This document shows, in pieces, positions 5,879 to 20,391 of a stretch of DNA of 64,000 nucleotides (within the stretch, counting starts at the first letter, position 1; every line of letters starts with the position of its first letter). Position numbers and translations under genes: made by a program. The stretch lies in NCBI GenBank assembly GCA_963674695.2, contig CAXXGI010000001.1:96001-160000 (forward strand), given 5' to 3'. The notes below the pieces were generated by a model, which saw nothing but the letters and a program-made list of their open reading frames with translations, made no database searches and was not told the DNA's origin. The DNA comes from a bacterium (lineage in GTDB: Bacteria; UBA10199; 2-02-FULL-44-16; JAAZCA01).

Positions 5879-6975
5879 CACATTGCCTCCTTTCTGAAGG
5901 CCGCCTGAATTAGATTTCCCTCTGCAGTAAAGCACACCGTATCTGCCTTATCCACGAGGAAGGTCTTGGAGAGATGGGCGTAGCGCATCGTGGTCTTGAT
6001 GTCGCTGTGACCCAGTATCTCCTTGAGGTGGAAGATGTCGCCGCCGTTCATCATGAAGTGGCTAGCGTATGTGTGGCGCAGATCGTGGAACCTGATCCTG
6101 CGGACCCCCGCCTCCCTTGAGTCCCGGTGGAAGTAGTGCGTGACGTTGCTGCGGTCCTTCGGGTTGCCCGTGATCGTCGAGAACACCAGCTCCCCATCCC
6201 GCCTCGCCTTCATATTCACGAGGTCGTCGTAGATCGCCGAGTTGATCGGCACGTGGCGTAGCTTGCGGCCCTTCGTGGTCTCCTTTATACGCCGCTGATA
6301 GCTGTCGTAGGTCCTGCGGACGGCTATGAGCCGGTTCCCGAGGTCCACGTCGCCCCATCCCAACCCCAAAACCTCCCCCAGCCGCATCCCGGTGTTCATG
6401 GCGAACTTGAACAGTAAGCCCAGATCGCTCTCCCTCCCCTCATATTTCCGGCTGACATACTCCAGGAACTGGCTTGCCTCGTGCCGCTCCCAATAGTCGA
6501 AGGGGGGCTGCTGGGTCTTGAGGAGGCCCACGACTCGTACGGGGTTATAGATCGCCCGCCGCCTCTTCATGGCGTAGTAGAAAATGGCCCTTAAAAGCTC
6601 CAACCGCCTGTTGACGCTGCTCGGAGAAGCCCCCTTGCCCAGGAGAGTGCCAATGATGGCTTCGACGTGTTCTGGGGCAATATCCCTGATCGGCAAGGCC
6701 CCCATCTGTGGCAACAGATCATCCTTGAGCATCTGCCTGTCGGTCCTGACGCTGCTCGGGGCCTTCCTGACCTCGGCATGGTTCTTAATCCACTCCTCGG
6801 CTGCCTGTGAGAACGTGTAGCCCAAGTCCAGCTCGCTGCCCGAAAGCTTTACCTCCCTGTGAAACTCCTTCGCATCTTCGCTTCTGTTGAAGTTCTTGGA
6901 GTAAAGCTTACCGTTCCTCCAAACCTTTACCCTATACACAAAACCCTTCTTGCGCTTAATCCTGGCTATCGACAT
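5878..6975 (-). CDS. Tyrosine recombinase (phage integrase)
   Basis: TGMRLGE (R), RFHDLRHTYAS (HxxR), LGHSDIKTTMRY (H, Y). N-terminal arm-binding-like domain. Confidence 0.96.
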   Translation of the reverse strand: MSIARIKRKKGFVYRVKVWRNGKLYSKNFNRSEDAKEFHREVKLSGSELDLGYTFSQAAEEWIKNHAEVRKAPSSVRTDRQMLKDDLLPQMGALPIRDIAPEHVEAIIGTLLGKGASPSSVNRRLELLRAIFYYAMKRRRAIYNPVRVVGLLKTQQPPFDYWERHEASQFLEYVSRKYEGRESDLGLLFKFAMNTGMRLGEVLGLGWGDVDLGNRLIAVRRTYDSYQRRIKETTKGRKLRHVPINSAIYDDLVNMKARRDGELVFSTITGNPKDRSNVTHYFHRDSREAGVRRIRFHDLRHTYASHFMMNGGDIFHLKEILGHSDIKTTMRYAHLSKTFLVDKADTVCFTAEGNLIQAAFRKEAM

Positions 6976-7205
6976 CGAACGCTCCTCTGTTTGAGCCAGA
7001 TTTCGATGTCGGAGGATTTGAAACGGATATGACGGCCCACCTTGACGAAGGGAATCGTGCGCTTGTGGCACCAGTCCCGGATCGTAGCGATAGGCACGTC
7101 CAGATATTCGGCCAGTCGATTTATTGACCATAGCTGATTGTCAATGAGCGGAGCGGATGACAACGGTTCTGTGGTTACCTCTTGGCTATCATCATGGCAA
7201 GCCAT
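6966..7205 (-). CDS. Excisionase-like HTH protein
   Basis: LAEYLDVPIATIRDW...IPFVKVGRHIRF is the typical Xis/HTH_17 pattern. Overlaps the integrase start. Confidence 0.85.
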   Translation of the reverse strand: MACHDDSQEVTTEPLSSAPLIDNQLWSINRLAEYLDVPIATIRDWCHKRTIPFVKVGRHIRFKSSDIEIWLKQRSVRCR

Positions 7206-7346
7206 CTCTCCTCCTCCTGTTATTTCGCCACCCTTTGGCCCCAGCCCCGGTGTTTTTTCACCGAGGCCGGGGTGTTGGTAGATTCTTCGGTTGATCCAAC
7301 GGCCAAAGGTCCTGCACTTGATTTCCCGCAAACCCTTTTTTTACCG

Positions 7347-7904
7347 TCATTTCCCATACCCTTTGTTGGTAGTAGCTAAATACTCTTCGCTGGTTACTGA
7401 TCCCTGATTGCTTTCTACTGAAAGCTGATCGCTTGTTACTGAACGCTGAACACTCCCTCCAACGACTACTTCCAGAAGCTCATCGACAATCGAATAGTGA
7501 AAGATTTCCGGCTTGGGTTTTCCTTTGAGAGGCCCACTTTCATATTTTGGAACCACCGTCCTCACTTGAGCTCGGAATACTTTATTCTTAAACACTCCTG
7601 GACTCATTCTTGTGATGGAGCGCGGTCTTGCGCCATTCGCAATCGACCAATTTTGGTAATATTTTGAGCGGGGAGGCCATCGATCATAGCTCTTGAACGC
7701 CTGGAATAGTGGCGTACCCATGTAAGGCCCGATAGAGACGACCTTGTAGCGCAAGAAAATACGTCCCTCGTTTGGAGCAAAAACACGGTCTTTTCTGTCG
7801 TAGCCCACATAATTAACTTCATAGACCTCCTCTGGTATCAGGGGATAGGCATCGCGCGCAGGGCGGCCGAGATCATCCATGATGTCATCTTCATCGAACT
7901 TCAT
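7347..7904 (-). CDS. Hypothetical phage protein, possibly a DUF669-like ssDNA-binding protein
   Basis: Acidic N-terminus then LIPEEVYEV and a beta-rich core. Family assignment is by resemblance only. Confidence 0.55.
   Translation of the reverse strand: MKFDEDDIMDDLGRPARDAYPLIPEEVYEVNYVGYDRKDRVFAPNEGRIFLRYKVVSIGPYMGTPLFQAFKSYDRWPPRSKYYQNWSIANGARPRSITRMSPGVFKNKVFRAQVRTVVPKYESGPLKGKPKPEIFHYSIVDELLEVVVGGSVQRSVTSDQLSVESNQGSVTSEEYLATTNKGYGK
7388..7450. repeat. Degenerate heptamer array (9 units, consensus NNCTGAW)
   Basis: cgctggt tactgat ccctgat tgctttc tactgaa agctgat cgcttgt tactgaa cgctgaa. Confidence 0.55.
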
Positions 7905-8134
7905 TCGAGCACGCCCTCTTCATATCCAGAGGAGTTCTCTGGTTCAAATATCGTGCAAACCGGCACGCCCAGGCGCTCGGCAATTTTTGCTGCAAGTTGA
8001 TCGTCCGGCTCGGCATGACCGTTCTCGAAAAAGCTGATCCTGTCGCGGGAGATGCCCAGATCGCGCGCGAGGCGAACGGCGGGGATTTGTGCCAAAGCAA
8101 GGGCAACTCGAAATTTATGGCGAATGAGCTTCAT
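7901..8134 (-). CDS. XRE/Cro-like HTH protein
   Basis: LARDLGISRDRISFFENG...IAERLGV. Confidence 0.85.
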   Translation of the reverse strand: MKLIRHKFRVALALAQIPAVRLARDLGISRDRISFFENGHAEPDDQLAAKIAERLGVPVCTIFEPENSSGYEEGVLE

Positions 8135-8251
8135 CGGATATCCTCCTCAACGATTCGTTGTGAGAAGGATATTGATCGAAGTGGAGATAGACCTCACGCC
8201 AAACAATGAATTATTATTTGGTCAGACGATACTTATGTTTTGATGGGTTAA

Positions 8252-8839
8252 TTAAGAGAAGATAAAGTGTTTGTATTTCTTAACGAAGCGACGCAATTTT
8301 GCCTTTTCGTCGAAAAGTAGCTCATATTCAGGGGAATCGGGCAGGCGTTTCCTGGCCTCTCGTGCGGCATCGATGAGCTGCTCAACGGTTATACCCTCAT
8401 TCGCTCGTGCGTATTCCTGAAATGTTAGCAGCAGAGGCCAATACCGTTTCAGCTTCGGCAGACGCGCAATTTTCGCGATTGCGCGCCCGATGTCCTTGAG
8501 AAACTTATGATCCTCGACCTCCTTCTTTCTTGCCTTGTTCTTATGTTTTGGGAACTCGATCAGTTGCCTTTCAGCTGCCATTATTTCTCCAATGGCATAA
8601 TCCTCAAGCAGAAAGGACTTATCCCATTCGACCAACTGAATTATCGCGCTTCGGTCACCGCGTTTGGCTCTGTCAATCGTCTCATTTTGATTCTCGCCAT
8701 AATTAGCGGAATAATATTCCAATGTGGATTTACGAAGCAGCTCACGCGCCGCCTTCTGTCTAGAAAAACGATCCATGCGTATTATCGGTTTCGCACTCGA
8801 TCGTTTTCGTTTCTTTTGTTTCGACTTGGCCATTTTCAT
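8252..8839 (-). CDS. Hypothetical basic protein
   Basis: 195-aa Lys/Arg-rich ORF, co-oriented with the other element genes. Confidence 0.65.
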   Translation of the reverse strand: MKMAKSKQKKRKRSSAKPIIRMDRFSRQKAARELLRKSTLEYYSANYGENQNETIDRAKRGDRSAIIQLVEWDKSFLLEDYAIGEIMAAERQLIEFPKHKNKARKKEVEDHKFLKDIGRAIAKIARLPKLKRYWPLLLTFQEYARANEGITVEQLIDAAREARKRLPDSPEYELLFDEKAKLRRFVKKYKHFIFS

Positions 8840-8900
8840 GTTCGCCTGTGAGGTTGATTGGGCATATTAAAACAAAGGGGGGAGCCCCCCTGGGGGTGCC

Positions 8901-9146
8901 TTATGCAACCCCGCTCCTCTTCCGTCCTCGCCCGCTGTTATTCTTATGTTTCAGGATGTCGCCTGGTCCGCACTTGAAGAAACAGCAAAGTTTGTCGAGC
9001 GTCGAGGCACAGATGTCATAATCATCCGGCCCCCTTGCGTGGGCGAGCTTGGATATCGTAGCATAGGCCAGGCCGATCTCCCCGGCGAGGGTTCGATAAC
9101 TCTTGTCAGATTTCTTTATGAGGTCACCAACGCGATATTCGATCAT
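8901..9146 (-). CDS. Cro/C1-type (HTH_26-like) transcriptional regulator
   Basis: LAGEIGLAYATISKL...TLDKLCCFFKCGPGDIL. GGAGG RBS. Confidence 0.85.
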   Translation of the reverse strand: MIEYRVGDLIKKSDKSYRTLAGEIGLAYATISKLAHARGPDDYDICASTLDKLCCFFKCGPGDILKHKNNSGRGRKRSGVA

Positions 9147-9156
9147 TCTCCCTCCA

Positions 9157-9216
9157 TGATATGCTAAACTATATCAATCTACTTGACCCTGGCAGGTGAT
9201 ATGCTATGCTATATCG
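9157..9216. promoter_or_regulatory. Two quasi-palindromic operator boxes in the divergent HTH/recombinase intergenic region
   Basis: TGATATGCTAAACTATATCA (9157-9176) and TGATATGCTATGCTATATCG (9197-9216). Confidence 0.65.
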
Positions 9217-9237
9217 CAGGGCATTGGAGGTCAAGGC

Positions 9238-9816
9238 ATGAAACACACAAGGATCGCCATATATGCCAGGGTTTCGACTGACGACCAGCGCGCCGATCTG
9301 CAACTCGATGCCTTGCGGCAATACGCGGAAGAACGAGGGCTAACGGTCCATCGAGAATACGTTGACCGGATTTCAGGGGCCAAGACCACCCGCCCAGCCC
9401 TCGATGAAATGCTGGACGATGCCCGCCGGGGCCGGTTTAACGCTGTGGCGGTCTGGAAGATCGACCGGCTGGGGCGATCCGTAGCCCACCTACTGACCGT
9501 ACTGACCGAGCTTCAATCCCTGGATATTGCCTTCGTATCGCTCCAGGAGGCCATCGACACGGCCACACCGGCCGGTCGCATGGTTTTTACGTTCCTGGGG
9601 GCCGTGGCGGAGTTTGAGAGGGCAATTATAGCGGAGAGGGTCCGGGCTGGGATGAAGGCCGCCAAGAAGCGCGGCAAGCATTGCGGAAGGCCGCGGGTAA
9701 AGGTGGACGCCAAGCTGGTCTGTGATCTCCGCACACAGGGCAAGAGCATGGCCGACATTGCCGCTATCGTCGGCGTATCGGAACCCACCGTATCCCGCCT
9801 CTTGCGGCACTCGTAG
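9238..9816 (+). CDS. Small serine recombinase (resolvase/invertase)
   Basis: IYARVST (catalytic Ser), RPAL, KIDRLGRS, AEFERAII, GRPR and a C-terminal HTH. Confidence 0.95.
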   Translation: MKHTRIAIYARVSTDDQRADLQLDALRQYAEERGLTVHREYVDRISGAKTTRPALDEMLDDARRGRFNAVAVWKIDRLGRSVAHLLTVLTELQSLDIAFVSLQEAIDTATPAGRMVFTFLGAVAEFERAIIAERVRAGMKAAKKRGKHCGRPRVKVDAKLVCDLRTQGKSMADIAAIVGVSEPTVSRLLRHS

Positions 9817-9818
9817 TC

Positions 9819-9917
9819 CTTTCAAAAGGGTCTAAATATGGGCAGGGCTAACGTCCCGAAATAGCAAGGGGCAAAGACGGGCAATTCGGTCTTTCAAAAG
9901 GTAATGGTTTTGAAAGA
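9819..9917. other. Putative res-like recombination site
   Basis: CTTTCAAAAGG at 9819 and 9891. Inverted pair TCTTTCAAAA-N8-TTTTGAAAGA at 9890-9917. Confidence 0.5.
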
Positions 9918-9919
9918 AT

Positions 9920-10309
9920 CTATTTTGTAATCAAAACTGGTATAGGCGTTTGAGGTGAAATGCTTGTTATTCCTTTCTCACCGTCCTTTGCCCATCTTAC
10001 CGCGATCCCCTTTGCAAGACGAACATAGGTGGCAGCAGATATTTCGAAGTTGAGGATCGCGTCGCCACCAGCTTTCGCAGTAATCTTTTGGAGTTTTTTA
10101 CGGGCGCTATTAATTCCAGATGTTTCCGCCGATACGGCTCCGAGTATGATGTATGGGTGAGGTGCCATATCCGACGAGTATATTTCAACGTGAGCGTATG
10201 AACTTTGTAATTTTCCTGCCCCTCCTGGTTTTGGTTTTTGGTATGCAGTCGCCGCACATGGCATGAATATAAACGCAATGGCAAATATAACGATTTTTTT
10301 CATATACAC
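9920..10309 (-). CDS. Small secreted protein, YbjQ-like fold suspected
   Basis: Signal peptide. PYIILGAVSA...AKAGGDAIL...AKGIAVR pattern. Confidence 0.6.
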   Translation of the reverse strand: MYMKKIVIFAIAFIFMPCAATAYQKPKPGGAGKLQSSYAHVEIYSSDMAPHPYIILGAVSAETSGINSARKKLQKITAKAGGDAILNFEISAATYVRLAKGIAVRWAKDGEKGITSISPQTPIPVLITK

Positions 10310-10314
10310 TCCCG

Positions 10315-10875
10315 CTACTTTTTATTTCCAGATGGCTGATCATCGCGATTAACTTGCTTCTTTTTCAATTCAGAGTAGCAATTGTCTGCCGACTCGGCAA
10401 AACCCTTTCCAACATCTGGCATCGCCATTTCAAATGGCCCCGACAGCTTTGGCTCTTGTGGCCTCGTGAGGGCAAGAACTCGCAAATACATCGAATAACT
10501 CTGCGCTTGACGCGCGGGCCACTTCATCGGCAGACAATCGCTATTATACTGATCAAAGAGATCGTATATCTCTATGGCATCACCTGCCTTATCGCCCAAC
10601 ACCTCAACGTCGTTCCTGTCGATGTTCACGTCATAAGGGCATCTGCTTGTTCCTTGAAGAATCGAGCTACACAAATTGAACTCAATGCGGGTCAACTGCT
10701 TCATGTGCTTATGAACTATTTGAGTCCTGTTTATGTCCTCATTGGAACAGCTCCTAATCGCTGGGATGCCAAATACGACTATGAGAATGATGCCTAAAAT
10801 GGCGATAATCAATCCGATAACAATATGATGTCGTTTGATCCATTCCATTTGATGCCTCATTATAATTCTGTTCAC
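10315..10875 (-). CDS. Hypothetical membrane-anchored protein
   Basis: N-terminal TM helix and several Cys residues. Overlaps the hsdM stop. Confidence 0.6.
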   Translation of the reverse strand: MNRIIMRHQMEWIKRHHIVIGLIIAILGIILIVVFGIPAIRSCSNEDINRTQIVHKHMKQLTRIEFNLCSSILQGTSRCPYDVNIDRNDVEVLGDKAGDAIEIYDLFDQYNSDCLPMKWPARQAQSYSMYLRVLALTRPQEPKLSGPFEMAMPDVGKGFAESADNCYSELKKKQVNRDDQPSGNKK

Positions 10876-12413
10876 GCTTGTTTTCTCAATAGCGCGATCG
10901 TCTCCGACAATTCCCTCCCCCTCGCTTCAATCGCATTGAGAATCTCCGTGGGTGTGCGTTCATCGACCACGACCTTGCGGTTGGGGTTAACGGCCTTGAT
11001 GTCGTAGCCGCGCTCCTCTATTTCAGCGCGCGGGATCGTCCAGCTGCGGTCGCTGTCGGCGCGATCCGGCAGCAAGCGGAAGAACTCCTCGAAGTGGGCC
11101 AGCGTCAGAGGCGACTTCTTGCCCATCTTGATGTCCGAGAGGTCATAATACCAGATGCTCTCCGTCGGACCGCCGCGCGTGAAGAACAGGAGGTTGGTCT
11201 TGACCCCTGCACCAGCGTTGGTGAAGGCACCGCCTGGCAAGCTGACGATGCACCAGAGATCGCAATCATCGAGGAGCTTGCGCTTGGTCTGCACGAAGGC
11301 CGTCTCATTGGTGCGGAAAAGGACGCCCTCATCGAGCACCATGCCGCAGCGACCGCCCGGCTTGAGCGAATCGATAACGTGCTGGAGGAAGAGGACCTGC
11401 GTGGCGCCGGTTTTATAGGCAAAGCGGGTCCGTGCCTCCTTGCCCTCTTTTCCTCCGAATGGCGGGTTGGTCATGACAACGTCGAATAGGGCCGGCGCAT
11501 CCTTAAACAATCCACCATATATCTCATTGCCCGTCAGGGTGTTGCCGTGCCAAAGGTGCGGCTCGTCAATCCCATGTAAGACGAGATTGGCCAAGGCGAT
11601 GGGATAGATCAGGTTCTCTTTTTCACGCCCGTAAAGCGCCCTTCTCTTGAGAATATCGATCTGTTCCGCAGTCGAGCCGCTTCCGAGGCCATCCCTCATA
11701 TGGAGATATGCCTGGACCAGAAAGCCGCCAGTACCGCAGCACGGGTCATACACGATCTCACCCGGCTTGGGATCGACCGTGCGCACGATGGCCCTGATGA
11801 CCTCGCGCGGCGTGAAGAACTGACCGCCATCGTTGCCCTTCTCGCCCATCTTGAGCAGAAGCCCTTCATATACCTGTGAGAGTGGGAATACATGAGTGGG
11901 GTCGATGGCCTCGTCTGTAATGTCCTGCACCTTGTCGAGTACATCGAGCAGATTTCGTTCCGTGTCGATTCGCACGCGCTCAACACCGGAGAGAATCTCG
12001 CTGATAACCTTCTGCCTGGGGCCGGCGTTGGGCTTTTCTCGCAGACCGCGCAGATATGGAAGGAGCTCTCCGTTGACGAAGCTGAAAAAGGCCCCGAGCG
12101 CGCCATTTTGCAGTTCTACACGTTTGGCCCCACCCGGCGCGGCCCAATCCTGCCATCGATATGGCGTTTCAAGCGAAGGAGTGAAATCCGATCCAACCGC
12201 CTCGGCTTCCTCCGCCTCTCGCTGTTCCCGCTCGTCCAGGATTCGCAAGAACAGGAGCCACGTCAGTTCAGGAACGTATTGAAGGGCTCCGGCACAGTTC
12301 GAGCGCCGCATGATGTTGCAAATGGATTTTACAGCGGAATTGACCGAGCTCTGCGTGCCCAATCGACGCCCGTTGCCATTTCCATTTTCTTTCTTCTTTC
12401 GTCCTCGTGCCAT
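10872..12413 (-). CDS. hsdM: Type I R-M methyltransferase subunit
   Basis: GQFFTPR, YDPCCGTGGF (motif I), MTNPPF (motif IV) and GVKTNLLFF. Confidence 0.95.
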   Translation of the reverse strand: MARGRKKKENGNGNGRRLGTQSSVNSAVKSICNIMRRSNCAGALQYVPELTWLLFLRILDEREQREAEEAEAVGSDFTPSLETPYRWQDWAAPGGAKRVELQNGALGAFFSFVNGELLPYLRGLREKPNAGPRQKVISEILSGVERVRIDTERNLLDVLDKVQDITDEAIDPTHVFPLSQVYEGLLLKMGEKGNDGGQFFTPREVIRAIVRTVDPKPGEIVYDPCCGTGGFLVQAYLHMRDGLGSGSTAEQIDILKRRALYGREKENLIYPIALANLVLHGIDEPHLWHGNTLTGNEIYGGLFKDAPALFDVVMTNPPFGGKEGKEARTRFAYKTGATQVLFLQHVIDSLKPGGRCGMVLDEGVLFRTNETAFVQTKRKLLDDCDLWCIVSLPGGAFTNAGAGVKTNLLFFTRGGPTESIWYYDLSDIKMGKKSPLTLAHFEEFFRLLPDRADSDRSWTIPRAEIEERGYDIKAVNPNRKVVVDERTPTEILNAIEARGRELSETIALLRKQA

Positions 12414-12414
12414 A

Positions 12415-13632
12415 TTACAATTCTCCGTTAAACGCCCTGCGCAGCATTGCCGCGGGTAACGCGTTGATGTCTGTGAGCTGTTTTTCAAAATGCAATTGTG
12501 CTTGGTTCACTACTTCAAAATGTATTTTGATTTTTTTGGCTATTTGTTTTTGTATATGGATATCCGGCAATGGCAATCGTATCTTGCCAAGCAATGTTGC
12601 GTTAACATTGGGCTGCGCTCCTCCGCGTGAATGTAATCTTACCTGGCGCCAATAATCATCACTTTGAAAATACAAATAGACATAATCATAGTCCGCAAGC
12701 GCACTCACTCTTAAGCGAATTAAATATGACGCAAAGACAGCACGCGGCGGATTCTTGATAAGATAACTTTTCCCCGTCGTCCCACCAGTTCTGGCGAAAA
12801 CTATATCTCCATGACACAAAGTATTCGCCGCTTCATCATCAGGCGATATTTGACAACCTGGCACAGTATGCCAATTTACCTCGCCGCATTGAATGTCTGT
12901 TATTCGCAATAACTTGGGCTCATGAATAGTGAAGTTCGCACTGGCAGTATAACCATAATCAAGGCTCTCGCATATTTCTCTTAAGGTCACACATCGCCAT
13001 CCTTCTGGCAAAGGACTTTCGGTATTTGGGAGTATCTCGCGCAGGAAGGAGGCAGGGAGCGCCTTCGCGGCCTCAAGCTGCGCCTCAACTGCTGCCCGTG
13101 CCTTCTCCACCGCCGCCATCTGCTCATTCAAAATTGCCGCGATACGCTTTTGTTCCTGTAATGGCGGAAAAGGGAAATTTAGGTTCTTAATATCGTTTAT
13201 TGATACATTGTTGACGATAGCATGTTTGCCCATTGCAGAGATACGTTCAAGAGAGATGGAAAGCCAATGCCGAAGCCACTTGGTTTCAATTTTACTTGAG
13301 CTGATCTTTATGATCCGCTGATTGAGTAATGCTGTTGGCCCATCCCACTCCGCCACTTTGAAACTACCTGATAAACTCAAGAGTAAATCACCTGTATTGA
13401 CCACAAATCGAGCATCATATTCTTTCGTCCAATATACGAACGTCGATCTGCTGTTTTCATCCAAATTTTGAATCCTGATAATAGGAATACCGGGCGGCGT
13501 TTTTTCAAAACCCTCTGATGGCCAAGCAAAGCCGGACAAGACCTCACACACGTCCCGCAACTTCACCCACCGCCAGCCGGGGGGCAGCTGCTTCTTCTCC
13601 ACTTCCTTTTTTTTCGGCTGCTCTCTCGTCAT
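12415..13632 (-). CDS. hsdS: Type I R-M specificity subunit
   Basis: Two TRDs with repeated LP(P/E)GWR..LR..C and PPLQEQKRIA / LPDIHIQKQIA spacers. Ends in AFNGEL. Confidence 0.95.
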   Translation of the reverse strand: MTREQPKKKEVEKKQLPPGWRWVKLRDVCEVLSGFAWPSEGFEKTPPGIPIIRIQNLDENSRSTFVYWTKEYDARFVVNTGDLLLSLSGSFKVAEWDGPTALLNQRIIKISSSKIETKWLRHWLSISLERISAMGKHAIVNNVSINDIKNLNFPFPPLQEQKRIAAILNEQMAAVEKARAAVEAQLEAAKALPASFLREILPNTESPLPEGWRCVTLREICESLDYGYTASANFTIHEPKLLRITDIQCGEVNWHTVPGCQISPDDEAANTLCHGDIVFARTGGTTGKSYLIKNPPRAVFASYLIRLRVSALADYDYVYLYFQSDDYWRQVRLHSRGGAQPNVNATLLGKIRLPLPDIHIQKQIAKKIKIHFEVVNQAQLHFEKQLTDINALPAAMLRRAFNGEL

Positions 13633-15968
13633 GCCGCAAACATCCTTTTCTTCGTTTCAAGGAGAACCTCGACCGGCTTCCCTAATGCACGGAGAGCCCC
13701 TAACCCGCCTGCCCGAATAACATCGGGCGTCTGAAAGACGTTAGGATTTTCCAAACCTTCGGTTCCTGCGATGGCAAACTGCGATGCCAAAGCGCGGATG
13801 GCGGTTGACGTGCTTTCTGGCATCCCCTGGAGCCAATGCGTGTGCTTGTAGGTGAACGAATCGGCGCGCTCCAAACGTGTCTTGGGTGCGAGCCCATAGC
13901 CGATCTCGGCCAGGACATCGTAAAGATCAAAATCGCTCATATCCTCGACCTCACGGACAAAGAGCGCAGACCTCCCGGCATCCGGGAGCTGATTCAGGAG
14001 GTCACGGCGGTCCCGCTGGACGATCCAGCGTGCGCGGAACTCCTCTATCGTCGGCACCTCCTTCACGAGGCGCTGTGCCAGGAGCTCCTTGTATTCTTCT
14101 ATGGTGACGGGCGCTGCCTTCCCGTCCACCTCCGTGACGATATATCGGCCAGCGTCTGTAACGCAGACCTCGAAGCCCTGCACGAGGACTGTGCGCTCCG
14201 GTGCCTGCGGTTCGCCGCCTTCTCCGCCTGATCTCGGCGTTGTAGTAACAAAATCCTCACCAAAGAGCCGCGTCGCGTTGGTGTAATCATAGACGCGGAA
14301 CATCAGCTTTGAATCCGGCGCATAGAGGCGTGTGCCCCTGCCGACCATCTGATAGAAGGCAATCGGTGAGCGGACGTATTTGAAGAAAACGATATTTCGG
14401 ACGCAGGGCACATCGACACCGGTTGAAAGAAGATCAACCGTCGTGGCCACATAGTATCGTCGTGAAGCACCACGGAGATCGGCGAGATAATCGCTGCCGC
14501 CTGACGCGGCCGTGCACTTGAAGGCATACTGTTCCGCCCGCTGCCGACCGTTCTTCGCACACCATTCCGCGTAGAGGTTGTTCATCACCGCCGCAACATC
14601 GTCGGCATGGCGGTCACGCACGCAGAATATAATCGTTTTCTGCTCCGCCTGCCCCGTCTCGACGAATTGATCGAAGAGGTCCTTGCACATGGCATGGACG
14701 CGGTCCGGAAGGAGGATGCGGTTTTCATAATCGGTCTTTTCGTATATCTCCCGCAGCTCGTCCGCGCTGATGGGCTGACCGGTGTTGGCGTCGATAGGAT
14801 TCTTGGCAATGATGTCATCGATTGTAATGCCCGTATCGTCTATATTGACCCGCCCTTTGCGAATCTCACAGGCAGCGAGATAGCCGTCCTCAATCCCTTG
14901 CGCCATCTCGTATTCATAGACCGGCTCACCGAACCATTTGTAGTTATCGGCCGTGACCTGCGCATCGGCGCGGGCTTCCTGGCTGTCCTCGCGGATTGCG
15001 AGTCGACGAGGCGTTGCGGTAAGTCCGACCTGCACGGCATCAGGATTCCGGGTAAGGACCTGCGACCATTTGCCCCAGGCCGAGCGATGGCACTCGTCGA
15101 TGATGATATGGCTAAAATAATTTTCAGGGTAGTTGGACAGCAGGAAGTTGGCATCGGCCTCATCGCGATCCACCTGGAGGGTCTGGTAGGTTGCGACGAG
15201 GATGCGGGCGTTCTTCTGGGGGTTGCCGCTCGATACCGCGGCCGCATCGGAGCCAAAGACGTTCTGAAATGCCGCCAGACCCTGCGAGCGCAGTTCATCG
15301 CGGTCGCAGACGAAAAGGGCGCGTCGCAGCTGGCCCGCGTCGGCGATACGCTTGAGCAGATTCACCGCTATGAAAGTTTTGCCTGAACCGGTGGCAAGGG
15401 AGAGCAGGGCCCGTTTCTCGCCCGTGGCGATCTTTTCGAGAACGGCCCTGATGGCGGCGTCCTGATAGTAACGGCGCGTCGCCTCACCACCGCTATACCG
15501 GGCAAGGAGCGGCCGCGCCGGTTCGCTTGCAAGCGAAAACCCCATCCCCTCCTCGTAGCGCTGGCGCAGCTCTTCCGGCGTGGGGAAGGCGGTCAGCTGG
15601 CGAGGTTCGGAGGTCTTGCCGCTGAAACGGTCGAACTCGACGAAGAGGTGGCCGTTGCTGGAAAAAACGAACGGCACATTCAGGCGCTTGCAGGTGGCAT
15701 AGAGCTTGACCTGTTCAAGACCATGATTCGGCGGCAGGTGTTCGGCTTTGGCTTCGATGAGGGCGAGGGCGACAGGTTGGGTATCGCGTGTGATTTTGAT
15801 GCGAAGGACGTAGTCCACTCGACCCTTGGGGCGCCGGCGGGGGCGTCCTTCGGCGATTTCAACGGCGCCTGCGGTTTCTTCCCTCCTGATGAGCTCTTCG
15901 GTCCATCCACGACGATGAATTGCAGGATCGATCAGCTTTGCCCTGGTGTCGGCTTCACCATAGCCCAT
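13629..15968 (-). CDS. hsdR: Type I R-M restriction subunit (EcoAI/EcoEI-like)
   Basis: EADTRAKLID, D-x-IEAK nuclease motif, ATGSGKT, DECHRS, LTATP, TGVDVP and QMVGRGTRL. Confidence 0.93.
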   Translation of the reverse strand: MGYGEADTRAKLIDPAIHRRGWTEELIRREETAGAVEIAEGRPRRRPKGRVDYVLRIKITRDTQPVALALIEAKAEHLPPNHGLEQVKLYATCKRLNVPFVFSSNGHLFVEFDRFSGKTSEPRQLTAFPTPEELRQRYEEGMGFSLASEPARPLLARYSGGEATRRYYQDAAIRAVLEKIATGEKRALLSLATGSGKTFIAVNLLKRIADAGQLRRALFVCDRDELRSQGLAAFQNVFGSDAAAVSSGNPQKNARILVATYQTLQVDRDEADANFLLSNYPENYFSHIIIDECHRSAWGKWSQVLTRNPDAVQVGLTATPRRLAIREDSQEARADAQVTADNYKWFGEPVYEYEMAQGIEDGYLAACEIRKGRVNIDDTGITIDDIIAKNPIDANTGQPISADELREIYEKTDYENRILLPDRVHAMCKDLFDQFVETGQAEQKTIIFCVRDRHADDVAAVMNNLYAEWCAKNGRQRAEQYAFKCTAASGGSDYLADLRGASRRYYVATTVDLLSTGVDVPCVRNIVFFKYVRSPIAFYQMVGRGTRLYAPDSKLMFRVYDYTNATRLFGEDFVTTTPRSGGEGGEPQAPERTVLVQGFEVCVTDAGRYIVTEVDGKAAPVTIEEYKELLAQRLVKEVPTIEEFRARWIVQRDRRDLLNQLPDAGRSALFVREVEDMSDFDLYDVLAEIGYGLAPKTRLERADSFTYKHTHWLQGMPESTSTAIRALASQFAIAGTEGLENPNVFQTPDVIRAGGLGALRALGKPVEVLLETKKRMFAA

Positions 15969-16021: not shown

Positions 16022-16306
16022 TCAAGGATTTCCACTTGCCCGATAATCCTCAACAATCACCTTAAACTCGTTCTCTCCCTCGGCCTTTACTTCCATGTTC
16101 CGGAGATCGGCCATGACCTTGCGCAGTAGGGCAACCGCCGCGTCTTTTCTCTCGCTGATTGTTGCACCCTCGATCTGGCCATCTGCGAGGGCTTGAAGAA
16201 ATGCGATGCAGCCGACGGCGTTGATCTTCTTTCGAAGCGCTTGGGTCAGGAGATTAGTCGAGCCCTTCTTCCTTCCTGAACCTTCTCTGTATCCGCCTCG
16301 CGCCAT
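16022..16306 (-). CDS. Terminase small subunit-like protein
   Basis: N-terminal MARGGYREGSGRKKGSTN is typical of TerS-like DNA-packaging proteins. GGAGG RBS. Sits at the element end. Confidence 0.6.
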   Translation of the reverse strand: MARGGYREGSGRKKGSTNLLTQALRKKINAVGCIAFLQALADGQIEGATISERKDAAVALLRKVMADLRNMEVKAEGENEFKVIVEDYRASGNP

Positions 16307-16349
16307 AGAACCTCCGAATGATTTAATGGTATTTTTTCAATACGATTCT

Positions 16350-16371
16350 TGGGTCCAATTTTGGGTCCAAT
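16350..16371. repeat. Putative integrase arm-type sites (right)
   Basis: TGGGTCCAATT-TTGGGTCCAAT, matching 5305-5326. Confidence 0.7.
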
Positions 16372-16501
16372 CGACTCAAAAACTGCCGTGAATTACCGTT
16401 TCTCCTCCGACACCGGAATCCGACATAGGTTATTGGTATCCTTCACAAACACTCGTTTTTACTGCCTCCCCCGCAAACGCCGTTTTTATGCGGGTTTCCC
16501 G

Positions 16502-16527
16502 CTCATAACCGGGTGGTCCCAGGTTCG
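16502..16527 (+). repeat. Right att site (26-bp tRNA-derived core)
   Basis: Identical to 5215-5240 and stops within the T-loop. Confidence 0.9.
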
Positions 16528-16533
16528 GGATCT

Positions 16534-16771
16534 ATCCGCCCCCTTGCTGCCCTCCCATCGCCGCTCATCGTGGAACGAACCGTTTTGGCCTGCGAAGGGC
16601 CGCTGGTTGAGATCGGAGATCTCAATTCCGAGTGATGTCTGAACCCGCCATCATCTCATGCGCTCTTCTTCCTTCGGCGGGTGAGTTCACGAGGAAAGGC
16701 GGGTCGAGACAGAGCCAAAACGTGTGAGTGGAACGGAAGAGCTGCGGTGGTAGGGCAGCAAGGGGGCGGAT
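16534..16771 (+). repeat. Structured ~238-bp repeat, copy 1 (MITE-like or ncRNA)
   Basis: Perfect 20-bp terminal inverted repeat ATCCGCCCCCTTGCTGCCCT with nested internal stems. Homologous to 17811-18047 and 19432-19538. Confidence 0.85.
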
Positions 16772-16795
16772 GCTCTGCACTGCAGCCTTAGCATC

Positions 16796-16853
16796 GGGAT
16801 CCTTTCCGCCAAAGGCGGACCCGCCTCTGGCGGGCGCGTTTCTTCGCTCGAGG
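16796..16853. repeat. 58-bp palindromic module, copy 1
   Basis: GGGATCCTTTCCGCCAAAGGCGGACCCGCCTCTGGCGGGCGCGTTTCTTCGCTCGAGG, identical at 18128-18185. Confidence 0.85.
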
Positions 16854-16888
16854 GCGATGGCCTTTGCGAATACGCCATCGATTCACCG

Positions 16889-17290
16889 TCACGCGGAACG
16901 TTGAAGATCCGCTTCCATGCCTTCGAGCTCTTGCAACAAAAACCGCTGCGTCTCCTCGCTCATCGACCCGGATTTCTTCACCCGATTTCTCGCTCGCCGT
17001 ATGTGCGAAAGGAGATCGCGTTCGAGGGCATCCCGCTCCTGCGTATCCCCGAGGAGGCGCTCGATCGGAACGCGGATAACCGGCGAGAGCTTCCGCGCTA
17101 TGCGCGCACCGATCGGCCGGCGTCCATGGATGATATCGCTGAGCGCCTGCTCGCTGATACCCGCACGACGCGCCACCTCGCGTTGTTTGAGCTCCATCAC
17201 CTCACACCCGATCCGCACATATTCCGCCGGCGTGAGATTCGCCGGCTGCGCAACTCGATAGTTCTTCTTTCCTTCCCCTGAAGAGAGCAT
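16889..17290 (-). CDS. higA: HigA-like antitoxin (XRE HTH)
   Basis: TPAEYVR...QREVARRAGISEQALSDIIHGRRPIG...ARKL. Lies downstream of the toxin gene. Confidence 0.75.
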   Translation of the reverse strand: MLSSGEGKKNYRVAQPANLTPAEYVRIGCEVMELKQREVARRAGISEQALSDIIHGRRPIGARIARKLSPVIRVPIERLLGDTQERDALERDLLSHIRRARNRVKKSGSMSEETQRFLLQELEGMEADLQRSA

Positions 17291-17300
17291 AGCAAACTCC

Positions 17301-17579
17301 TTAATATTGATGTGGTGTGATCTCCTCGACAATGACCGTAACAATCGATTGCTCCACCCGATAGATCACACGCCATTGAAGCGAGAGTCGCGACGCACGG
17401 TACCCATACCATTTCCCCGAAAGGGCTTTGTCCCGAAATCCGGGACGATGACAGAGCTCATGCGGACCAGAGTCCAAGAGCACGTTTTTCCAGAAATCAT
17501 ATTTCTCCCGAACCTGCTTGGGGGCACGAGCCAAACGCTTCATCGCCCCCGTCTCTTCCAGCACCGTCCATTTATTCAT
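17301..17579 (-). CDS. higB: HigB/RelE-superfamily mRNA interferase toxin
   Basis: 92 aa with DKALSGKWYGYRASRLSLQWRVIY and C-terminal ITPHQY. Toxin-first gene order. Confidence 0.8.
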   Translation of the reverse strand: MNKWTVLEETGAMKRLARAPKQVREKYDFWKNVLLDSGPHELCHRPGFRDKALSGKWYGYRASRLSLQWRVIYRVEQSIVTVIVEEITPHQY

Positions 17580-17751
17580 GAACGCTCCCTCTATTGTAGC
17601 ACTACTCATTTTTAGGAAACAAGCACTTAGTACACATTTATGGGAAGTACCGCCCGCCGCCGCCATTTGCTGCAGATGCTGCAAAACGCAGCAGCAACGC
17701 ACCGCTAACCCATTGTTTTTAAGAGATCGGCACAGATTGCCTTCTTCAAAC

Positions 17752-17767
17752 AGCAAGTGTCGTGCCA
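17752..17767 (-). promoter_or_regulatory. Putative sigma-54 promoter
   Basis: Minus strand reads TGGCAC-GACAC-TTGCT (perfect consensus), ~170 bp upstream of higB. Confidence 0.55.
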
Positions 17768-17810
17768 AGAAAGGATTCAAAACCATCTGACGCCTTCCAC
17801 CCCCCGTAGA

Positions 17811-18047
17811 ATCCGCCCCGTCGATGGCCTCCCATCGCCGCTCATCGTGGAACGAGCCGTTTTGGCCTGCGAAGGGCCGCTGGTTGAGACCGGAGGTCTC
17901 AATTCCGAGTGATGTCTGAACCCGCCATCATCTGATGCGTTTTTCTTCCGACGGCGGGTGCGTTCACGAGGAAAGGCGGATCGAGACAGAGCCAAAACGT
18001 GTGAGTGGAACGTTGAGCTGCGATGGGAGGGCAGCAAGGGGGCGGAT
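17811..18047 (+). repeat. Structured ~237-bp repeat, copy 2
   Basis: Colinear with copy 1. Left TIR partly degenerate, right TIR intact. Confidence 0.85.
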
Positions 18048-18058
18048 GCTCTCTGGGC

Positions 18059-18191
18059 TGGATCCCCGATAACCCCATTCGGGGATGACAGTGCGGGGGC
18101 GCCCTGGGATGACAATATGAAACACGAGGGATCCTTTCCGCCAAAGGCGGACCCGCCTCTGGCGGGCGCGTTTCTTCGCTCGAGGATGACA
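18059..18191. repeat. REP-like GGATGACA units and 58-bp module, copy 2
   Basis: Three ...GGATGACA ends. 18128-18185 is identical to 16796-16853. Confidence 0.75.
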
Positions 18192-18526
18192 ATCAGGGGC
18201 GGGCGAGCGGGGATATGACAAACGAAGAACATGTCAGAAAAGACGATCACTTTTTCTGACGACGATCCGCTTATCATCATTTTTGCAAAGCATAAGCGTT
18301 AACAATTTCAATGCTTTATGGAATTCCTGGCCCTATCATCACCCTTGCAGACACAACGCTTTGGCCGAATCCTGATGTCGAAAAGTGGTCATAGGCGACC
18401 ATCACAAAGGCCGTTTGTGGTGGTCTGATTTTACCACTTTTGCGCATCAACTTAGCGGAGGGTAATGTTCGGGCGGGCAAGAGGGAGAGAAAGCGCTTCT
18501 TTCAGATATCATCATTCGCTTTAACT

Positions 18527-19126
18527 TTATTGGCGCCCAAAACGCCGCGCGTAGAGGGAAAACGCGCCGACGTTGATGATGATAAGAATGAGGAGCGTTC
18601 CGCTCACCGTCAACGGAAACCGATAGCGAAAGAGGGTCTGGGCGATCACGCCCCCTTCCGTCTCAGCGACGAGTTTCGTCCCGACAAAGGGCGAGAGGTT
18701 GAGCCCCAAGGATAAACTATGCTCTTTTCCCGCGACCAGGTGATCGGGGGGATATTTGGAGACGTCGACCGTAACGAGATTTAAAAAGAAGAGGAAGAGC
18801 AGGAACGCGATGTTGAAGAGGAAGGCGTTGCGCGCCGCACGGCGTACGATGAGTTCTTCGCGTTCGTCGCGTTCTTTCACGAACGCGATCCGCTTCAAGA
18901 GCTGCTCCCGAAATCGAGACGAGAACACGAGACAGACGACCGTGTAGAGCGCCGTGGCAATCCAGAACGCGAAGAGGTATCCGGAAAGCGCGTTGCCCCA
19001 CTCCAGAAGCGGTGAGCCGACGGCGCTTTCAGTCGCAGCAATCTGTGGCCAGATCATGAACGCCACGAGAATGACCGGAAGGGCGATAATAAAATAGGAC
19101 ATGACGATGCGATTGAGCGTCTTCAT
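18527..19126 (-). CDS. Membrane protein (DUF2178-like DERE motif)
   Basis: Four hydrophobic segments and ERDEREELI. Overlaps the stop of the upstream HTH gene. Confidence 0.75.
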   Translation of the reverse strand: MKTLNRIVMSYFIIALPVILVAFMIWPQIAATESAVGSPLLEWGNALSGYLFAFWIATALYTVVCLVFSSRFREQLLKRIAFVKERDEREELIVRRAARNAFLFNIAFLLFLFFLNLVTVDVSKYPPDHLVAGKEHSLSLGLNLSPFVGTKLVAETEGGVIAQTLFRYRFPLTVSGTLLILIIINVGAFSLYARRFGRQ

Positions 19127-19335
19127 TTCGATTCCTCCATGGTGAAGATCTCTTCGATCCCCACGTTGAAAAAATGGGCCAGCTTGAACGCGAGTTCGAG
19201 CGACGGATTGTAGTTCCCCTTCTCGATGGCGATGATCGTCGCCCGCGTCACGCCGACGGCCTCGGCCAGTTTCTCCTGCGTCATCCGCTTCTCGGCACGC
19301 AGGACGTGCAATCGACTCATAATGACGTTCTTCAT
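19123..19335 (-). CDS. XRE-family transcriptional regulator
   Basis: MTQEKLAEAVGVTRATIIAIEKGNYNPSLELAFKLA. Confidence 0.92.
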   Translation of the reverse strand: MKNVIMSRLHVLRAEKRMTQEKLAEAVGVTRATIIAIEKGNYNPSLELAFKLAHFFNVGIEEIFTMEESK

Positions 19336-19376
19336 ATTCCACTCCTCTGTCGCGAAGATGTCATGCGAACTGCGCA

Positions 19377-19406
19377 CTTTGTATAGTTGGCTATACTTTT
19401 TGTCAA
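19377..19406 (-). promoter_or_regulatory. Sigma-70-like promoter with palindromic operator
   Basis: Minus strand TTGACA-N17-TACAAA. Palindrome GTATAG-TTGG-CTATAC (19381-19396) lies in the spacer. Confidence 0.55.
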
Positions 19407-19431
19407 ATACTATTTTCTTTTATTTCGTTCA

Positions 19432-19538
19432 GTTGAGATCGAAGACTCAATTCCGAATGCTGTCTGAACCCGCCAGAATATAGTGCGTTCTTCTTCCGCC
19501 GGTGGGGGAGTTCGCGAGGAAAGGCGAGTCGAGGCAGA
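19432..19538 (+). repeat. Structured repeat, partial copy 3 (core only)
   Basis: GTTGAGATCGAAGACTCAATTCCGA..TGTCTGAACCCGCCA...GAGTTCGCGAGGAAAGGCGAGTCGAGGCAGA aligns to the core of copies 1 and 2. Confidence 0.75.
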
Positions 19539-19599
19539 TGAAGCGCCTCGCCGCATCACAATCGTGTTTCGCTTACGGTTTTATTTTGAAGTGATTCAA

Positions 19600-20391
19600 T
19601 CAGCGTATCCGCTTGAGGACAGCATCTGCAATGGCTCTGGATGACGCCGGGTTCTGGCCGGTGATCAGCTCTCGATCTTCGACGACGTAGGATTGCCAAT
19701 CGGGGCCCTTGGAATATCGGGCTCCCGCATTTTTCAAGGCCGTCTCGGGTGTGATTTTGAGGTGTTTCCCCACCTCGGAGGCGGTCTCCTCCGCATTGCT
19801 GAAAGCGGTCACCCGATAGCCCTCATAGGGAAAGTCACCCCCATCGACGGTGCTGAGCAGGGCAATGGGGGCGTGGCACACGAGCGCCGTCGGTTTCTTG
19901 GCCGCATGGAACGATCGCAACAACCGCCCCACCGCCTTATCCGCCGCGAGGTCTTCCATGGGGGCATGCCCTCCCGGAAAGAAGACCGCATCATAGCCAC
20001 CCCATCCGGACCGTTGGAGCTCCGAGAGGTTGGCAATCGTCCCTGTGTCCAGCACCTCCGCCTTTATCCTCATGGCCTCGTCATAGTCCTTCTTCGAGTT
20101 CCAGAAGAGCGGCTTCCCCTCTTTATCAACCGCGATGCTCGCCGGGTCGGCCACCGGACGATTTCCATTCGGCGTTGCGATGGTGACCTTGACCCCTTTG
20201 TCGCGAAATACTTTATACGGTGTTGAAAACTCCTCGAGCCAATATCCCGTCTGGTGTTTCTCACCGTCCTTTCCCGTGATGTAATCGACACCGGTCACGA
20301 CGATGAGAATAGATTTTGATTTCGAACACGATGTCGTCACACACGAGAACACAAGCGCCACGGCGGCCATAATAATGATGCCGGTTTTCAT
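19600..20391 (-). CDS. DJ-1/PfpI (Hsp31-like) family protein with signal peptide
   Basis: TGYWLEEF, FFPGGHAPMEDL, VCHAP nucleophile and LITGQNPAS. Confidence 0.92.
   Translation of the reverse strand: MKTGIIIMAAVALVFSCVTTSCSKSKSILIVVTGVDYITGKDGEKHQTGYWLEEFSTPYKVFRDKGVKVTIATPNGNRPVADPASIAVDKEGKPLFWNSKKDYDEAMRIKAEVLDTGTIANLSELQRSGWGGYDAVFFPGGHAPMEDLAADKAVGRLLRSFHAAKKPTALVCHAPIALLSTVDGGDFPYEGYRVTAFSNAEETASEVGKHLKITPETALKNAGARYSKGPDWQSYVVEDRELITGQNPASSRAIADAVLKRIR

Follow-up and report, generated by a model that had tools for sequence, protein, structure and literature searches.

A family of structured intergenic repeats with a conserved core and copy-specific outer arms in a repeat-rich bacterial genome

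The stretch analysed here, called the window, comprises 64,000 nucleotides of contig CAXXGI010000001.1 (C1:96001-160000 of the 3.03 Mb genome G000, which has three contigs, C1 to C3, and 58-59% G+C), and it carries three copies of a structured repeat that we term family A. Family A is a genuine structured element of an undescribed family, in which the fold rather than the outer sequence is conserved. Each unit spans ~245-300 nt and consists of a ~175-nt conserved asymmetric core (helices P2-P5 and conserved internal loops) enclosed by an outer stem, P1, of 27-36 bp, whose sequence differs between copies while its pairing is kept. Our preferred reading, for which we put the chances at about even, is that family A is a duplicating or mobile interspersed foldback element, specific to the lineage of an uncultured bacterial family, whose active form is a folded single strand.

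Family A in the window and the genome

A sequence-only reading of the window had described two full copies and one core-only copy of a structured repeat, and all three are present as it gave them (16534-16771, 17811-18047, and 19432-19538; Table 1). Positions 16534-16735 and 17811-18012 are 93% identical over 202 nt, and a 98-nt core is common to 16616-16713, 17893-17990, and 19441-19538 at 82-92%. The perfect 20-bp inverted repeat said to close copy 1 is likewise found, as 20 consecutive pairs that form the outer end of P1. Within the core, P5 is a long helix broken by a conserved bulge and an internal loop, and it is capped by a variable apical loop. Partial copy 3 consists of the inner part alone (P4, P5, and some of P3), with the outer stem and P2 absent on both sides. 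Copy 2 shows a cluster of changes in its left arm, and its own outer stem is just 77% complementary; the best partner of its right arm is the left arm of copy 1 (95%), compared with 89% for copy 1's own pairing. A 58-nt repeat, made of two short G+C hairpins of which the second is followed by a T-rich run on the + strand, stands downstream of both full copies and was not found beside the other family A copies. Copies 1 and 2 are thus a local duplication that included the 58-nt repeat, since the repeat is shared by them and absent at other copies. A 34-nt part of it also occurs at C1:869881-869914, C3:238372-238405, and C2:634287-634320.

Genome-wide, a profile search recovered 11 full copies, two copies split by an insertion sequence (IS), and two partial copies (19431-19540 of the window and C3:719823-719921), together with a few fragments. 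The split copies are each interrupted by a 1.4-kb insert. Three local direct pairs were seen: copies 1 and 2 of the window, C1:1002.7k/1003.8k, and C3:385.7k/391.8k. No longer parent element carrying the family A core was found by BLAST and nhmmer.

Evidence that the fold is under selection, with the + strand favored

Copy 1 folds at -136.8 kcal/mol on the + strand, compared with -91.3 +/- 5.6 for 200 shuffled sequences (z -8.1). The - strand folds almost as well (-127.2 kcal/mol, z -8.9) because the element is a near-palindrome, and the consensus energies are -126.6 (+ strand) and -117.2 (- strand). An RNAalifold consensus of 11 copies contains 84 pairs, 43 of them with double changes. One pair in a small hairpin had been picked out earlier as fully compensatory, and the alignment agrees: columns 82/88 of alignment A1 are U-A in seven copies and C-G in four. 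The earlier proposal that wobble pairs favor the + strand also stands. Read on that strand, the cores of this genome hold 31 G-U cells in 13 pairs versus 4 A-C cells in 3 pairs, a count made on the combined pairs of both strands' predicted structures, so that the asymmetry does not stem from folding one strand alone. The trend is the same in 21 full-length sequences of other genera, where G-U versus A-C cells number 34 versus 9 in the arms and 27 versus 6 in the core. A core that tolerates G-U but not A-C requires selection on a single-stranded fold.

The larger sequence sets extend this result. Among 39 genome-derived sequences, 94.4% of cells are paired, compared with 66.4% in shuffled sequences and 33-41% with slid partners, and double changes occur in 72 of 84 pairs. 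The corresponding values for 32 distinct metagenome sequences are 93.4%, 75.7%, and 32-46%, with double changes in 54 of 83 pairs; these large alignments were fitted to the structure of the covariance model, which favors pairing. Nevertheless, both the magnitude of the effect and the control with slid partners speak for genuine covariation. All pairs of the outer stem covary in both sets, and several unpaired blocks are kept from genus to genus, unlike the lengths of P4 and the apical hairpin. With ~70 sequences from at least nine genomes and from metagenomes, the covariation data are unusually strong. Together, the doubly changed pairs and the excess of G-U over A-C support that the structure is under selection with the + strand favored, as the sequence-only reading had inferred.

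A scan of Rfam (4227 families), which that reading had proposed as a check, gave no family match for the element. At the gathering threshold the whole window yielded two tRNAs only. With E values up to 10, the interval 16300-19700 gave chance-level matches, none of them on copies 1 and 2; the best was Ocean-V at 19412-19447 (E 1.3), which overlaps the start of copy 3. Five further loci with copies of family A and of two other repeat families (B and C, described below) gave, at E up to 0.1, a tRNA and a weak miRNA-like match elsewhere.

Homologues in other genera and in metagenomes

A collection of homologues and a covariance model had also been suggested, and both were obtained, with strong covariation in the additional copies. 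BLAST with the 175-nt core found nothing in 40 relatives because the homologues are too diverged, as the covariance model later showed. This model, built from the 11 full copies of G000, matched full-length sequences in six further genera of the taxonomic family, with E values of 1e-33 to 1e-53: seven strong matches in G001, two in G003, ten in G005, two in G008, one in G011, and two in G012. Together with the 11 full copies of G000, these matches put the repeat far outside what chance would produce. Among the 12 same-family genomes, full-length matches range from 0 to 10 per genome, four genomes (G002, G004, G006, and G009) have no match, and two have weak ones only. Among 93 genomes of the class, two more distant ones match, G020 (1.7e-22) and G056 (two matches, near 1e-18). 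Copy number varies from 0 to ~15 between related genera. The ten G005 copies are near-identical, arms included, at different loci.

Pattern searches added metagenome sequences. A two-block pattern from G000 itself had no match in genome contigs, for which one genome per species was searched (185,579 species), and none in metagenome contigs. A cross-genus block pattern found 12 loci in the genome contigs, 11 of them in two metagenome-assembled genomes equal to G005 and G001; the twelfth was set aside as a probable chance match. The same pattern found no locus in viral contigs and 32 loci in metagenomes, where the model gave 34 matches, 29 of them full-length at E <= 2e-47. Head-to-head pairs of family A (67-72% identical, 31-101 nt apart) were seen at metagenome loci L114, L123, and L141 and at L084 of G001, and a further one is cut off at metagenome locus L122. 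Several metagenomes have such pairs at loci that appear orthologous; where their arms differ, the changes are compensated in place, and one head-to-head copy has mismatched, apparently recombinant arms.

The outer arms diverge while remaining complementary

The outer stems of the G000 copies comprise 352 arm cells, of which 336 are Watson-Crick, 3 G-U, 5 A-C, and 8 other. Nine of 11 copies have an essentially perfect stem, and the two that do not are copies 1 and 2 of the window. When copies are compared, the mean pairwise distance rises from 0.14 (core) through 0.33 (unconstrained apical loop) to 0.57-0.58 (arms); unrelated sequence would be expected to give 0.73. Arm distance follows core distance weakly on the right (rho 0.29) and hardly at all on the left (rho 0.02), and the neighboring copies C1:1002.7k and C1:1003.8k have a loop distance of 0.07 and an arm distance of 0.67. 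Some pairs of copies share clearly homologous inner arm segments in which all differences are compensated. The arms of the ten recent copies in G005 are the same from locus to locus, apart from a few variants that are compensated.

Searches for an outside source of the arms returned little. BLAST of all 22 arms found only their own partners, recent duplicates, and one family B element, and an arm motif scan gave 49 matches, nearly all random. Short-loop hairpins with at least 16 perfect pairs number just 27 genome-wide. We therefore rejected the idea that the arms are a separate palindrome family or empty target hairpins, since no reservoir of empty palindromes was found, although insertion of the core into rare pre-existing hairpins might still have occurred. 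Three hairpins (C3:7055-7132, C3:635656-635731, and C3:919414-919473) have different perfect stems of 24-33 bp around a similar 12-nt loop, and so repeat the pattern of a free stem and a fixed center on a smaller scale; a word related to this loop also lies inside the arms of the family A copy at C1:440.9k and the family B copy at C1:433.9k.

An IS110-family element inserts into a fixed position of family A

The 1.4-kb inserts in the two split copies are an IS of the IS110 family. The element is 1435 bp long and has 14-bp terminal inverted repeats, 100 nt of 5' and 198 nt of 3' non-coding sequence, and an open frame of 397 aa from stop to stop (390 aa from the first start codon). The two PF01548 matches of the genome are the two IS copies. 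They interrupt family A at an identical position, within the P5 internal loop kept from genus to genus, and both junctions show the same four bases. Family A is therefore the specific insertion target of the genome's sole IS110-family IS. Guide-target complementarity was sought in the 198-nt 3' non-coding region of the IS, and matches of 6-7 nt only were found, which is the chance level.

Conserved intergenic stem-loop repeats have been described as targets of IS110 elements (bioRxiv 10.64898/2026.03.19.712850), among them repetitive extragenic palindromic (REP) sequences for IS621 and a conserved intergenic stem-loop for ISPpu10 (PMC11208160; bioRxiv 10.64898/2026.03.19.712850). The present case is alike in that a single IS occupies one position of a multi-copy structured intergenic repeat, in two of two copies here. 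It differs in what can be learned from it: the relation tells what uses family A, not what family A is.

Families B and C share the same plan

G000 is very rich in repeats, with 755 repeated regions in a self-BLAST; three of its four Y1 transposase genes lie within a ~890-bp three-copy repeat. Two families that are unrelated to family A nevertheless show its plan, in that arms specific to each copy and complementary to one another enclose a core that is conserved. In family B, which falls into two subfamilies and numbers at least ten copies, this core measures ~175-232 nt. The arms of its copy at C1:433893-434254 are homologous to those of the family A copy at C1:440.9k, 7 kb away, with five differences that are all compensated, while the cores differ. 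The ~97-nt core of family C, for which BLAST gave 29 matches, includes a hairpin plus T-run resembling a terminator. Thirteen of these 29 copies lie within 350 nt of a family A or B copy, mostly 50-220 nt upstream and in the same orientation, which suggests composite units, and one family C copy stands in place of the center of a family B copy. The idea that family C is a promoter was rejected, because its -10-like word (on the minus strand) falls in a variable loop and is not conserved.

A family B2 copy lies ~220-320 nt after the template repeat of a diversity-generating retroelement (DGR) at C2:705800-708850 (L050). This DGR looks to be in working order: it has a 317-aa reverse transcriptase (C2:707195-708148), and its template repeat (C2:708152-708291) and variable repeat (C2:706542-706682) differ by 23 mismatches, 20 of them at template adenines. 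The variable repeat ends an FGE-sulfatase/EgtB-like gene, and a DUF559 gene lies in between.

Gene context

The window copies each lie 3' of a minus-strand gene unit, as the sequence-only reading had noted: a toxin-antitoxin pair (16892..17582), which sits between copies 1 and 2, an HTH_3 regulator with a membrane protein, and a DJ-1/PfpI gene (Table 1). The further proposal that the family punctuates accessory genes and delimits cassettes fails outside the window, where neighbors are mostly housekeeping genes in any orientation. In G000, the neighbors are Fic/mnmG, purF/epimerase, cdd/major facilitator superfamily transporter, racemase, trmB/cysZ, and PAP2, in convergent, divergent, and tandem settings, and both neighbors are antisense to the element in four of 12 copies and at several foreign loci. 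At 26 loci of other genomes, the neighbors are prfB, dnaK, queA, folE, rsmG, nadE, and similar genes, with one Fic gene (G005) and one Gp49/HigB-like gene (G003) among them. Placement is thus random with respect to accessory genes, the outcome that the sequence-only reading had named as refuting its proposal. The window copies look as though they came by local duplication to sit in an apparent defense or accessory island (5881-15968, upstream), which holds two recombinase genes and a type I restriction-modification system. A linked integrase had been suggested too; the nearest tyrosine recombinase lies 9 kb away behind the restriction-modification genes and scores far below the cut-off of the integron-integrase model, and none of the genome's five PF00589 matches is beside a family A copy. 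This recombinase is one of three paralogous copies of ~1.26 kb in the genome.

Table 1. Coordinates of family A copies, their structural parts, neighboring genes, and related repeats (window positions unless a contig is given)
Feature	Location	Strand	Basis or remark
Family A copy 1, full length	16533..16776	+	covariance-model match, 265.7 bits, model positions 1-245
Copy 1 outer stem P1	16534-16566 with 16739-16771	+	predicted fold
Copy 1 P2	16579-16593 with 16708-16725	+	predicted fold
Copy 1 P3	16597-16604 with 16698-16705	+	predicted fold
Copy 1 side hairpin P4	16606-16626	+	predicted fold
Copy 1 P5	16627-16649 with 16676-16695	+	predicted fold
Copy 1 variable apical loop of P5	16650-16675	+	predicted fold
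Conserved P5 internal-loop motif (contains GAGTTC), IS target position	16681..16689	+	cross-genus conservation; IS junctions in two other copies
58-nt repeat after copy 1	16796..16853	+	100% identical to 18128-18185; terminator-like site
Family A copy 2, full length	17810..18052	+	covariance model, 246 bits; 92% identity to copy 1
58-nt repeat after copy 2	18128..18185	+	100% identical to 16796-16853; terminator-like site
Family A partial copy 3	19430..19540	+	nhmmer model positions 38-148; covariance-model positions 72-166, 69.5 bits
HigA-like HTH_3 antitoxin	16892-17293	-	HTH_3; HigA model below its cut-off
RelE/StbE-family toxin	17304-17582	-	TIGR02385, 33.4 bits, cut-off 27.9
Membrane protein	18530-19126	-	weak DUF3796; between copies 2 and 3
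HTH_3 regulator	19126-19338	-	HTH_3, E 2.6e-16; between copies 2 and 3
DJ-1/PfpI family gene	19603-20391	-	right of partial copy 3
Xer-like tyrosine recombinase	5881-7131		TIGR02249, 55.3 bits, cut-off 265
Serine recombinase	9196-9813		
Type I restriction-modification system	hsdM 10875-12488; hsdS 12418-13632; hsdR 13632-15968		
IS110-family IS	C3:391975-393409; C1:838786-840218	C1 copy -	PF01548 and PF02371
Family B copies	C1:433893-434254; C1:439917-440089; C3:729267-729498; C2:591544-591764; C2:786839-787044; C1:755338-755512; C2:403831-404005; C2:649577-649753; C2:708637-708811		
Family C examples	C1:755040-755200; C3:385488-385602; C2:271778-271895		

Possible modes of action

If family A is a duplicating or mobile foldback element, the + strand fold would be what is selected, being needed for copying or mobilization as single-stranded DNA (ssDNA) or RNA, or for a host function, and this would explain the persistence of the core sequence and of every helix in different genera. 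The element would multiply within genomes, often locally. Several of its traits fit mobile or duplicating elements: bursts of nearly identical copies, direct pairs at one locus, truncation, nesting with other repeat families, and neighbors that are unrelated. Quasipalindrome mutations are described as arising by template switching, a process that can make quasipalindromes perfect (PMC7202029). By the same route, one arm of family A may repeatedly be re-templated from the other through intramolecular template switching, which would also let the stem grow outward into the local flank; in addition or instead, the cores may be homogenized between copies by selection and gene conversion. We infer these steps because the arms are near-perfectly complementary although they diverge faster than the apical loop.

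Several results weigh against such an element. No mobilizing gene linked to family A was found. In particular, a linked HUH or REP-associated tyrosine transposase (RAYT), as raised by the sequence-only reading, did not appear: a covariance-model search of 15 Y1-transposase loci of ~3 kb each (four from G000 and 11 from relatives, of ~60 Y1 matches) found no family A copy. Y1 (IS200/RAYT-like) genes occur in 13 of 13 family genomes, with 2-9 in each and many in open frames of 200-350 aa; their presence does not discriminate, because they also occur in the four genomes with no family A match. The genome's sole reverse transcriptase belongs to the DGR and is not linked to family A. Conservation is lowest at the ends of the element, which is where known ssDNA recombinases act. 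No direct repeat indicating target-site duplication was seen beyond P1 in five copies inspected by eye, whose true ends are uncertain, and no excision or empty-site joint was found in contigs from three DNA runs of one study, contigs that break at repeats. The + strand lies on the G-rich strand in eight copies and on the other strand in seven, so there is no replication-strand bias. The fitting of the large alignments to the model structure belongs here as well. Finally, the conservation of unpaired core nucleotides up to class level, and the head-to-head pairs at apparently orthologous loci with compensated arms, fit a function at the level of the host as well as, or better than, a purely selfish element.

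Alternatively, family A could be a multi-copy structured non-coding RNA, in which the ~175-nt core is functional and the outer stem is a processing stalk that releases it from a read-through transcript, in the manner of the RNase III stalks that flank rRNAs. We regard this as possible though rather doubtful. It would account for covariation in every helix (in the metagenome set as an independent one), for the excess of G-U over A-C that marks one strand both here and in other genera, for the conservation of unpaired loop nucleotides between genera and as far as class level, for helices kept while P4 and the apical hairpin vary in length, for compensated arm differences at apparently orthologous loci, and for the terminator-like + strand hairpin after window copies 1 and 2. 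However, that terminator-like repeat follows those two copies only, and there is no conserved promoter or upstream motif, sequence outside the core being copy-specific. A promoter scan found one site where 1.7 were expected from shuffled sequence; this site (19358-19387, + strand) lies ~45 nt upstream of partial copy 3, and none is beside copies 1 and 2. Head-to-head pairs spaced by 31-37 nt leave no room for two outward promoters, both neighbors run antisense at the loci noted above, and no Rfam family matches. Truncated copies, near-identical bursts, and a copy number of 0-15 among related genera would also be unusual for an RNA gene.

Family A might otherwise serve the host at the DNA level, for example as a non-mobile binding platform for a nucleoid or replication protein whose ancient fixed copies have had their cores kept alike by selection and gene conversion. 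Arm divergence near saturation beside similar cores, the apparently conserved position of a head-to-head pair across metagenomes, and core conservation up to class level would all suit it, but strand-asymmetric wobbles are not expected of a duplex binding site, ten near-identical G005 copies at unrelated loci imply recent spread, truncated copies exist, and the family is missing from four of 12 same-family genomes and weak in two more; on balance, we find it improbable. Least credible, and to our minds very unlikely, is that family A folds in the single strand as an integron attC-like recombination site at the boundaries of mobile gene cassettes. The three direct copies in the window each follow a small accessory gene unit, the folding is strand-specific, and copies stand beside Fic genes (here and in G005) and a Gp49/HigB-like gene (G003). 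Moreover, copy 1's left arm is more complementary to copy 2's right arm than to the right arm of its own copy (see above), a pattern that would result from insertion into one ancestral site. Such hybrid, Campbell-type arms are suggested for window copies 1 and 2 only, however, while the other local pairs have self-consistent arms. Furthermore, most copies are singletons between housekeeping genes, their ends are hypervariable rather than conserved, the length of 245-300 nt exceeds the size range of attC sites, and the sole tyrosine recombinase of the window is both distant and low-scoring.

Comparison with known repeats and significance

Family A resembles REPINs (hairpin-forming pairs of REP sequences), enterobacterial repetitive intergenic consensus (ERIC) sequences, and miniature inverted-repeat transposable elements (MITEs) in lifestyle, but fails the defining features of REPIN, MITE, and attC, because conservation lies in its center and its ends vary freely. 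REPs are described as extragenic hairpins in ssDNA or mRNA that show compensatory stem changes and occur as singlets and clusters (PMC3116915). Like them and REPINs, family A is a short, non-coding, lineage-specific extragenic repeat with long hairpins and compensatory stem changes, found singly and in clusters, and the abundance of Y1/HUH transposase genes in all 13 family genomes adds to the likeness with REPIN/RAYT systems. A REPIN, however, has two conserved ends (the REPs) and a free middle, whereas family A has a conserved middle and free ends; family A is two to three times longer and carries a side branch; and the cognate Y1 gene of REPIN-RAYT systems is flanked by repeats, while no family A copy lies at the 15 Y1 loci searched.

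ERIC (also called IRU), Correia (NEMIS), and similar foldback, MITE-like repeats are imperfect intergenic palindromes of 100-300 nt that are non-coding, occur in either orientation, and vary strongly in copy number between related taxa; they have conserved terminal inverted repeats, and some show target duplications. Family A shares with them the intergenic foldback, the free orientation, the variable copy number, and the lack of coding sequence. It departs from them and from MITEs in its copy-specific arms, in the absence of a duplication in the five copies read, and in that no parent IS was found: a MITE has terminal inverted repeats in common with its parent IS, whereas the arms of family A differ and the 1.4-kb insert is an unrelated IS110-family element. 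With attC sites it shares strand-specific folding, variable sequence with conserved pairing, and, in the window, a position after accessory genes. Yet attC sites have conserved inverted end sites around a variable center, and family A is the reverse of this, larger, and conserved centrally; it also lacks an integron integrase and, outside the window, the array, its copies there being singletons or pairs.

Bacterial repeats such as REP, REPIN, ERIC, and MITE are defined by conserved ends. Family A reverses this plan, and two unrelated families in the same genome, B and C, share its reversal. This raises the questions of whether long hairpin arms are kept matched by selection on the single strand or by re-templating of one arm from the other, and of which machinery copies an element whose ends carry no recognizable signal. 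In addition, a natural, defined IS110 target within a structured repeat bears on how RNA-guided recombinases choose safe sites. A bolder and fairly unlikely possibility is that families A, B, and C represent a new class of self-contained RNA or ssDNA modules, each with a conserved catalytic or protein-binding core; a long stalk, fully paired but free in sequence, would be the place at which the core is cut out of whatever host transcript contains it. Copying of one arm from the other would renew the stalk, and the modules would spread and nest in each other's hairpins. If this were true, genetic elements of RNA or ssDNA that lack a protein of their own would be conserved throughout an entire uncultured bacterial class.

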